From assembly GCF_053078305.1 (NCBI RefSeq), contig NZ_CP166879.1: a stretch of 64,000 nt of DNA; one strand, written 5' to 3'. Positions 43,326 through 43,420 of the stretch are shown here, piece after piece (the first letter of the stretch is position 1; every line of letters starts with the position of its first letter). Below the pieces are notes generated by a model that was given only the letters and a program-made list of their open reading frames with translations, was not told the DNA's origin and did no database searches. Both the position numbers and the translations under genes were made by a program.

Positions 43326-43420
43326 ACCGGCGCAGAGGAGACAATGCCGGATTTAAGACGCGGATGCACTGCTGTGTGTACTGTAGAGTCTGGCGGATGT
43401 CGACAGACTCTATTTTTTTA
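43326..43420 (+). ncRNA. mcaS: McaS (IsrA) small RNA
   Basis: ACCGGCGCAGAGGAGACAATGCCGGATTTAAGACGCGGATGCACTGCTGTGTGTACTGTAGAGTCTGGCGGATGTCGACAGACTCTATTTTTTT; 95 nt, convergent with abgR. Confidence 0.75.

Follow-up and report, generated by a model that had tools for sequence, protein, structure and literature searches.

McaS (also IsrA or IS061) is a well-characterised small RNA of Escherichia coli. It belongs to the cAMP-CRP regulon, activates flhDC by pairing with the flhD 5' UTR and represses csgD (PMC3634460), and it is known to direct endonucleolytic cleavage of the csgD mRNA (PMC6061853). The RNA carries four GGA motifs, two of which bind CsrA; the resulting titration of CsrA raises pgaA expression, and repression of csgD by McaS is itself enhanced by CsrA (PMC10729762). 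McaS also binds the RNA polymerase core, and its stem-loop 2 is reported to be needed for specific binding (PMC4824073). For the K-12 sequence, to which the copy described here is identical, a discrete transcript of ~95 nt has been reported to accumulate in stationary phase or when nutrients are limiting (PMC4824073, PMC3634460, PMC10729762).

We analysed a window of 64,000 nucleotides, i.e., the whole stretch of contig NZ_CP166879.1 under study, for which a first-pass annotation made from the letters alone had placed McaS/IsrA at 43326-43420, between smrA and abgR, and had proposed comparison with McaS models as a check. Searching the whole window with Rfam 15 returned a full-model match to RF00115 (118.4 bits, E = 1.9e-21; model positions 1-96 of 96, window 43326-43421, plus strand), which is far above chance, the gathering score of the family being 42. 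The plus-strand letters of the RNA at 43326-43420 are ACCGGCGCAGAGGAGACAATGCCGGATTTAAGACGCGGATGCACTGCTGTGTGTACTGTAGAGTCTGGCGGATGTCGACAGACTCTATTTTTTTA. Its length is 95 nt in the first-pass annotation, 96 nt in the Rfam model and 94 nt in the K-12 annotation (corresponding to window 43326-43419), since the end of the U-tail is placed differently in each. From 43220 to 43440 the window is base-for-base identical to K-12 MG1655, whose curated record carries the ncRNA gene mcaS (b4426, 1405658..1405751, complement) between abgR (b1339) and smrA (b1340), with dgcM beyond. The gene order in the window, i.e., dgcM, smrA, mcaS, abgR, and abgA, is that of K-12 in reversed orientation, and a 329-nt stretch including mcaS is 100% identical to O157:H7 genomes. 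The Rfam match, the identity to K-12 and the gene order together bear out the original assignment, and we are nearly certain that the plus strand of 43326-43420 is the gene for McaS, a free-standing, trans-acting regulatory sRNA with the function that it has in K-12. No observation spoke against this identity.

The identification is correct but already known, as this is a well-characterised sRNA at its usual locus. Its discovery value is small, since McaS is a textbook sRNA of the network that governs motility and biofilm in E. coli, and the copy in the window is identical to the characterised one. It does, nevertheless, bear on annotation. In PGAP-annotated RefSeq genomes mcaS has no feature, the entry being "none" for every genome among the matches listed (H1-H33); the same holds for the mcaS region of the O157:H7 genome NZ_AP018488.1 (locus L002, 3001-3329). 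Among the annotation records compared, only the curated K-12 record annotates the gene. PGAP thus misses mcaS in O157:H7 and other E. coli, and sequence scans of this kind recover real genes that are unannotated.

The coordinates of the features discussed here are given in Table 1. Among them are four other known E. coli sRNAs (sok, RydC, MicC, and FnrS). MicC and FnrS lie 4.8 kb apart in the window (34900-39948) as compared with 27.9 kb in K-12, a difference accounted for by the cryptic prophage Rac, which spans 23,060 bp in K-12 (1411899-1434958). Since the difference in distance equals the length of Rac, the genome from which the window derives lacks Rac at ttcA.

Table 1. Positions of mcaS, its component elements, its neighbours and other sRNA genes in the 64,000-nt window.
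Feature	Position	Strand	Basis or remark
McaS (IsrA/IS061) sRNA, ~95 nt	43326..43420	+	RF00115 match; identity to K-12 mcaS b4426
-35 hexamer TTGGCA, 18-bp spacer	43290..43295	+	Sequence; TGG invariant in 17 promoters
-10 hexamer TATAAC (-12 to -7)	43314..43319	+	Sequence; TATA invariant in 17 homologous promoters
CRP-like palindrome CGTGA-N6-TCACT	43266..43281		Sequence; putative site
Stem-loop 1 (CCGGCG/UGCCGG)	43327..43350	+	Rfam consensus structure and MFE fold
Stem-loop 2, with GGA #3 (43362)	43358..43377	+	Rfam structure, 18-sequence alignment
Stem-loop 3 (intrinsic terminator), then T7	43383..43419	+	-13.9 kcal/mol hairpin; 100% paired in 18 sequences
smrA (ydaL), divergent from mcaS	42535..43098	-	ORF, K-12, species loci; neighbour conserved across species
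abgR, LysR-type regulator, convergent with mcaS	43428..44336	-	ORF, K-12 annotation; neighbour, outside the sRNA gene
sok antitoxin RNA	1459-1610	+	Full-length Rfam match, 109.7 bits (whole window)
RydC sRNA	2170-2233	+	Full-length Rfam match, 92.5 bits (whole window)
MicC sRNA	34900-35020	-	Full-length Rfam match, 125.3 bits (whole window)
FnrS sRNA	39831-39948	-	Full-length Rfam match, 134.8 bits (whole window)

The terminator had been described in the first-pass annotation as GAGTCTG...CAGACTC followed by a T-tract, and it was found as described, with the arms at 43386-43392 and 43404-43410 and a run of seven T residues behind them. The arms in fact extend to a 9-bp stem (TAGAGTCTG, 43384-43392, with CAGACTCTA, 43404-43412) and two further inner pairs, giving a hairpin of -13.9 kcal/mol with T7 directly 3' of it (43413-43419). 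The McaS of the window therefore possesses the terminator module, i.e., a Rho-independent third stem-loop and U-tail of the Hfq-binding 3' module type. Folding by minimum free energy (MFE) yielded three stem-loops, of which the first and third agree with the Rfam consensus while the second is slightly different. The four GGA motifs of the RNA (43337, 43349, 43362, and 43395) agree with the four described for McaS (PMC10729762). The first occupies the 12-nt loop of stem-loop 1 and the second its 3' foot, the third falls in stem-loop 2, whose 3' half is almost invariant between species in an 18-sequence alignment, and the fourth lies within the invariant loop region GGCGGATGTCGAC of stem-loop 3.

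The first GGA motif also bears on whether McaS could be a dual-function RNA encoding a small protein. An ATG at 43344 opens a frame of 42 codons (43344-43472, plus strand) and is preceded by GAGGAG, which contains the Shine-Dalgarno-like AGGAG. However, this motif is the first GGA itself, a documented CsrA site (PMC10729762), and stands 3 nt from the ATG. The frame also crosses the terminator, so that the 95-nt RNA would hold no stop codon, and the ATG, at nt 19 of McaS, was present in 1 of 17 homologues (locus L080) and in no other Escherichia sequence. Missing conservation effectively refutes this ORF as a gene, and a protein-coding role for McaS has, in our judgement, practically no chance of being right. 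A 41-aa ORF on the minus strand (43324-43449), overlapping mcaS and the 3' end of abgR, was likewise set aside, as no supporting feature was found for it.

Since the hairpin region directly adjoins the stop codon of abgR, the hairpin and its flank might be taken for nothing but the 3' UTR or terminator of abgR, with no independent gene present. However, the T-tract accompanies the hairpin on the plus strand only, a conserved plus-strand promoter lies upstream of it, the curated K-12 annotation at this element is an ncRNA, and the McaS element persists where abgR has been deleted. The strand of the T-tract and the persistence of McaS without abgR refute this reading, which we regard as scarcely conceivable. 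A bidirectional terminator common to mcaS and abgR was also rejected, as T7 is on the plus strand and the minus strand reads CAGTACACACAG, with no T-tract. An independent McaS gene remains the reading that we adopt.

The promoter elements of that gene are placed in Table 1, and the ACC with which McaS starts was invariant in 17 promoter sequences drawn from species or strains. A published up-mutation of isrA, a C-to-T change in the -10 box (PMC4824073 supplement), fits the final C of TATAAC. Neither the promoter nor the terminator of mcaS was picked up by simple consensus scans, owing to the rules that these apply: the promoter scan demands a final T in the -10 hexamer, which TATAAC does not have, and the terminator scan allows loops of up to 8 nt, whereas the perfect 7-9 bp stem of McaS encloses 11 nt. 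Exact GTGA and TCAC half-sites of the CRP-like palindrome were both retained in 13 of 17 mcaS promoters, and the centre of the palindrome lies, by our own count, at -52.5 relative to the 5' end annotated for McaS. Classical CRP sites are centred at -61.5 (class I) or -41.5 (class II). Since -52.5 matches neither, the promoter has an unusual spacing, or else our assignment of the element or of the start site is not the published one. McaS has been reported to be CRP-dependent (PMC3634460).

The core GTGA-N6-TCAC was found at 43267, 44472, 44570, and 46129, i.e., four times in 64 kb as against 0.84 expected, a count that was reached in 3 of 100 shuffles. All four copies fall in the mcaS-abgR-abgA-abgB stretch, one of them in the divergent abgR-abgA intergenic region and another just inside abgA. 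This clustering may reflect control of the abg operon by CRP.

Conservation was assessed by scanning species-representative genomes with a pattern of the conserved stem-3 loop and T-tract. This gave 81 matches, of which 65, in unrelated phyla, were chance and were set aside; the other 16, all in Enterobacteriaceae, proved without exception to be full-length Rfam McaS (67.8-108.7 bits). When the Rfam base pairs were scored on an 18-sequence MAFFT alignment, which is not structure-aware, helix 3 (the terminator) was paired in 100% of cells with 4 of its 12 pairs changed on both sides, helix 2 in 82% with changes on one side only, and helix 1, in the variable 5' third, in 57% with 2 of 6 pairs changed on both sides. 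The low value for helix 1 is probably due to misalignment of the variable 5' third, a part of McaS that van Nues et al. also found hard to align (PMC4824073). Over the whole structure 84.9% of cells were paired, as compared with 35-45% when partners were slid by 1-3 columns. Each of the 17 homologues carried 3-5 GGA motifs.

Within E. coli, McaS was detected in 5,304 of 5,426 complete genomes, and ~120 gave no McaS match at all. A small minority of genomes matched a part of the locus, e.g., NZ_CP195143.1 and NZ_CP065615.1, examples being the spacer only (query positions 1-157 of 329) and McaS nt 21-71 only. Such partial or absent matches may represent deletions or insertions that disrupt mcaS. 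Across species, smrA was found divergently upstream of mcaS in 14 of the 16 representatives and in E. coli strain Ecol_AZ153, in which a cluster of AraC, HlyD, and MFS genes stands between the two; in the other two representatives (L021 and L064) the sequence upstream of McaS is too short to tell. Downstream of McaS, ogt or an abgR remnant was present in 14 of the 16, and one locus ends before any gene. Intact abgR near McaS was seen in a single representative, Enterobacter sp. CC120223-11, where it lies within ~40 nt of the sRNA.

These distributions are pertinent to the arrangement of mcaS and abgR in the window, which is convergent as the first-pass annotation had stated, with mcaS on the plus strand and abgR on the minus. 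McaS had also been said to end 8 nt before the abgR stop. The adjacency stands, but the figure is the coordinate difference between 43420 and 43428; the bases in between number seven (TGCAGTT, 43421-43427), and positions 43428-43430, read on the minus strand, give the TAA stop of abgR. From the convergence it had been proposed that transcriptional interference with abgR could follow. Such interference, or a cis-antisense effect, could arise by read-through of McaS into abgR, or by an abgR transcript running antisense across mcaS, in which case RNA polymerases would collide or the abgR 3' UTR would pair perfectly with McaS. The spacing of only 7 nt between the McaS 3' end and the abgR stop codon is in keeping with this, as is the close, intact abgR of Enterobacter sp. 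CC120223-11. Furthermore, no intrinsic terminator of abgR is evident ahead of mcaS, as the minus strand continues after the hairpin with CAGTACACACAG and a terminator scan of that strand from 43428 to 43099, under the rule of loops of ≤8 nt, found none. Since the minus strand has no T-tract, the abgR transcript may extend antisense into mcaS, and an antisense overlap is plausible.

Other evidence weighs against interference. Since McaS ends in a strong intrinsic terminator of canonical form (a 9 + 2 bp stem, -13.9 kcal/mol, and U7), read-through into abgR should be minor. The adjacency, moreover, is not conserved: abgR is present in only 4,224 of 5,426 complete E. coli genomes as against 5,304 with McaS, and at least 1,080 of these genomes keep McaS without abgR. 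Strain Ecol_AZ153, which has no intact abgR, has a perfectly conserved McaS promoter, and in 15 of the 16 other enterobacterial species representatives (including the locus that ends before any gene) no intact abgR was seen adjoining McaS. Van Nues et al. tabulated ydaL, isrA, and abgR across species, and in their table isrA and abgR occur independently, isrA without abgR in Citrobacter koseri and abgR without isrA in Klebsiella oxytoca and Enterobacter aerogenes (PMC4824073 supplement). In the accessible portion of a RIL-seq supplement for EPEC E2348/69, 164 chimeras of the csgD 5' UTR with McaS are recorded, the flanking region is named mcaS.ogt.IGR, and McaS is present among the entries while abgR is absent (PMC8550237). 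McaS thus acts on a known target in this strain with no abgR next to it.

In the accessible portions of the Term-seq (PMC7815308), SMRT-Cappable-seq (PMC6131387), and Hfq-CLASH (PMC7213987) supplements there was no entry for mcaS or abgR, and no link between McaS and abgR expression was found in the literature and partial supplements searched, both of which are weak evidence. In a text search of the accessible literature, a single microbiology paper contained both names, each of them once. Considering the strong terminator and the unconserved adjacency, the proposal of interference with abgR is not supported, and we consider interference or a cis-antisense effect improbable. The closeness of McaS and abgR is probably incidental and not functional. 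The many genomes with McaS and without abgR argue that adjacency is not a selected feature, and we infer that the 7-nt spacing reflects the history of the locus, in which abg has been gained and lost in the interval from mcaS to ogt. Across genomes McaS keeps smrA and ogt as its neighbours, with the abg operon present in some and absent from others, which argues against hypotheses built on the closeness of McaS to abgR.

A narrower form of the antisense proposal would confine it to those E. coli lineages that carry abg. In these, abgR transcripts would run antisense through mcaS towards smrA and couple AbgR expression and McaS in cis, either by collision of polymerases or through a perfect 95-bp duplex cut by RNase III. 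We think this very unlikely. If true, it would tie salvage of p-aminobenzoyl-glutamate, a folate breakdown product, to the choice between motility and biofilm, and the coupling would be a lineage-specific addition, not a core function of McaS.

Traces of the variable history of the locus are found on both sides of mcaS. In the smrA-mcaS spacer, positions 43220-43255 hold the last 11 codons and stop (MHDYSFTILIM*) of a gene for an AraC-family regulator, which is intact at this position in ~1,450 complete E. coli genomes; in Ecol_AZ153, the one genome examined, it is accompanied by efflux genes of the HlyD and DHA2 MFS families. The smrA-mcaS arrangement of K-12 and O157 is a deletion scar. The stop codon of the AraC-family gene is 74 nt from the McaS start and hence within the conserved promoter region. 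On the other side, loci that lack the abg operon often still hold a degraded 3' piece of abgR 9-14 nt past the McaS terminator (L003, 4216-4428; L021, 715-931; L027, 449-838), and it appears that deletions of the operon do not reach as far as that terminator.

Since both the RNA and its promoter are identical to those of K-12, the O157:H7-like copy in the window is inferred to behave in the same way. Accordingly worded in terms of the K-12 system, cAMP-CRP would activate the sigma-70-type promoter of mcaS as nutrients fall, and the transcript would begin with the invariant ACC and end at the intrinsic terminator with its U7 tail. Together with Hfq, McaS would pair with the csgD 5' UTR, leading to endonucleolytic cleavage and less curli, and with the flhD 5' UTR, opening an inhibitory structure and increasing flagellar synthesis; as the RNA is identical to that of K-12, the regions that pair with these two 5' UTRs are necessarily present. 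Two of the GGA motifs would titrate CsrA, so that pgaABCD is derepressed and more PGA polysaccharide is made, and the RNA would also bind the RNA polymerase core through stem 2.

The closest described system is therefore McaS of K-12 itself (RF00115; b4426), which shares with the window copy an identical RNA and at least 106 nt of identical upstream promoter sequence, the smrA and abgR neighbours with their orientation, the three stem-loops, the four GGA motifs, and the terminator. Over 329 nt, the K-12-type sequence and the O157:H7-like window are 99.4% identical, and the two differences both lie upstream of 43220 and not within the gene. The variant in Ecol_AZ153, a genome without abg, is also a full-length Rfam match (112.8 bits) and shares the promoter elements, GGA motifs, stem 2, and terminator. 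It differs in the loop of stem 1, which reads GCAGAGGAGACAAU in the window and CACCAGGACCCCAG in AZ153, where there is no internal ATG, and in one terminator pair, which is U-G as compared with U-A in the window. The AZ153 locus has, upstream of McaS, an intact AraC-family gene whose end is 74 nt away and, downstream, a short abgR remnant, ogt, and fnr. More distant are the sponge RNAs CsrB and CsrC, which, like McaS, bind and titrate CsrA by means of GGA motifs (PMC10729762). CsrB has 22 such motifs as compared with four in McaS and, unlike the CsrB and CsrC families, McaS is an Hfq-dependent base-pairing sRNA and is assigned to RF00115.
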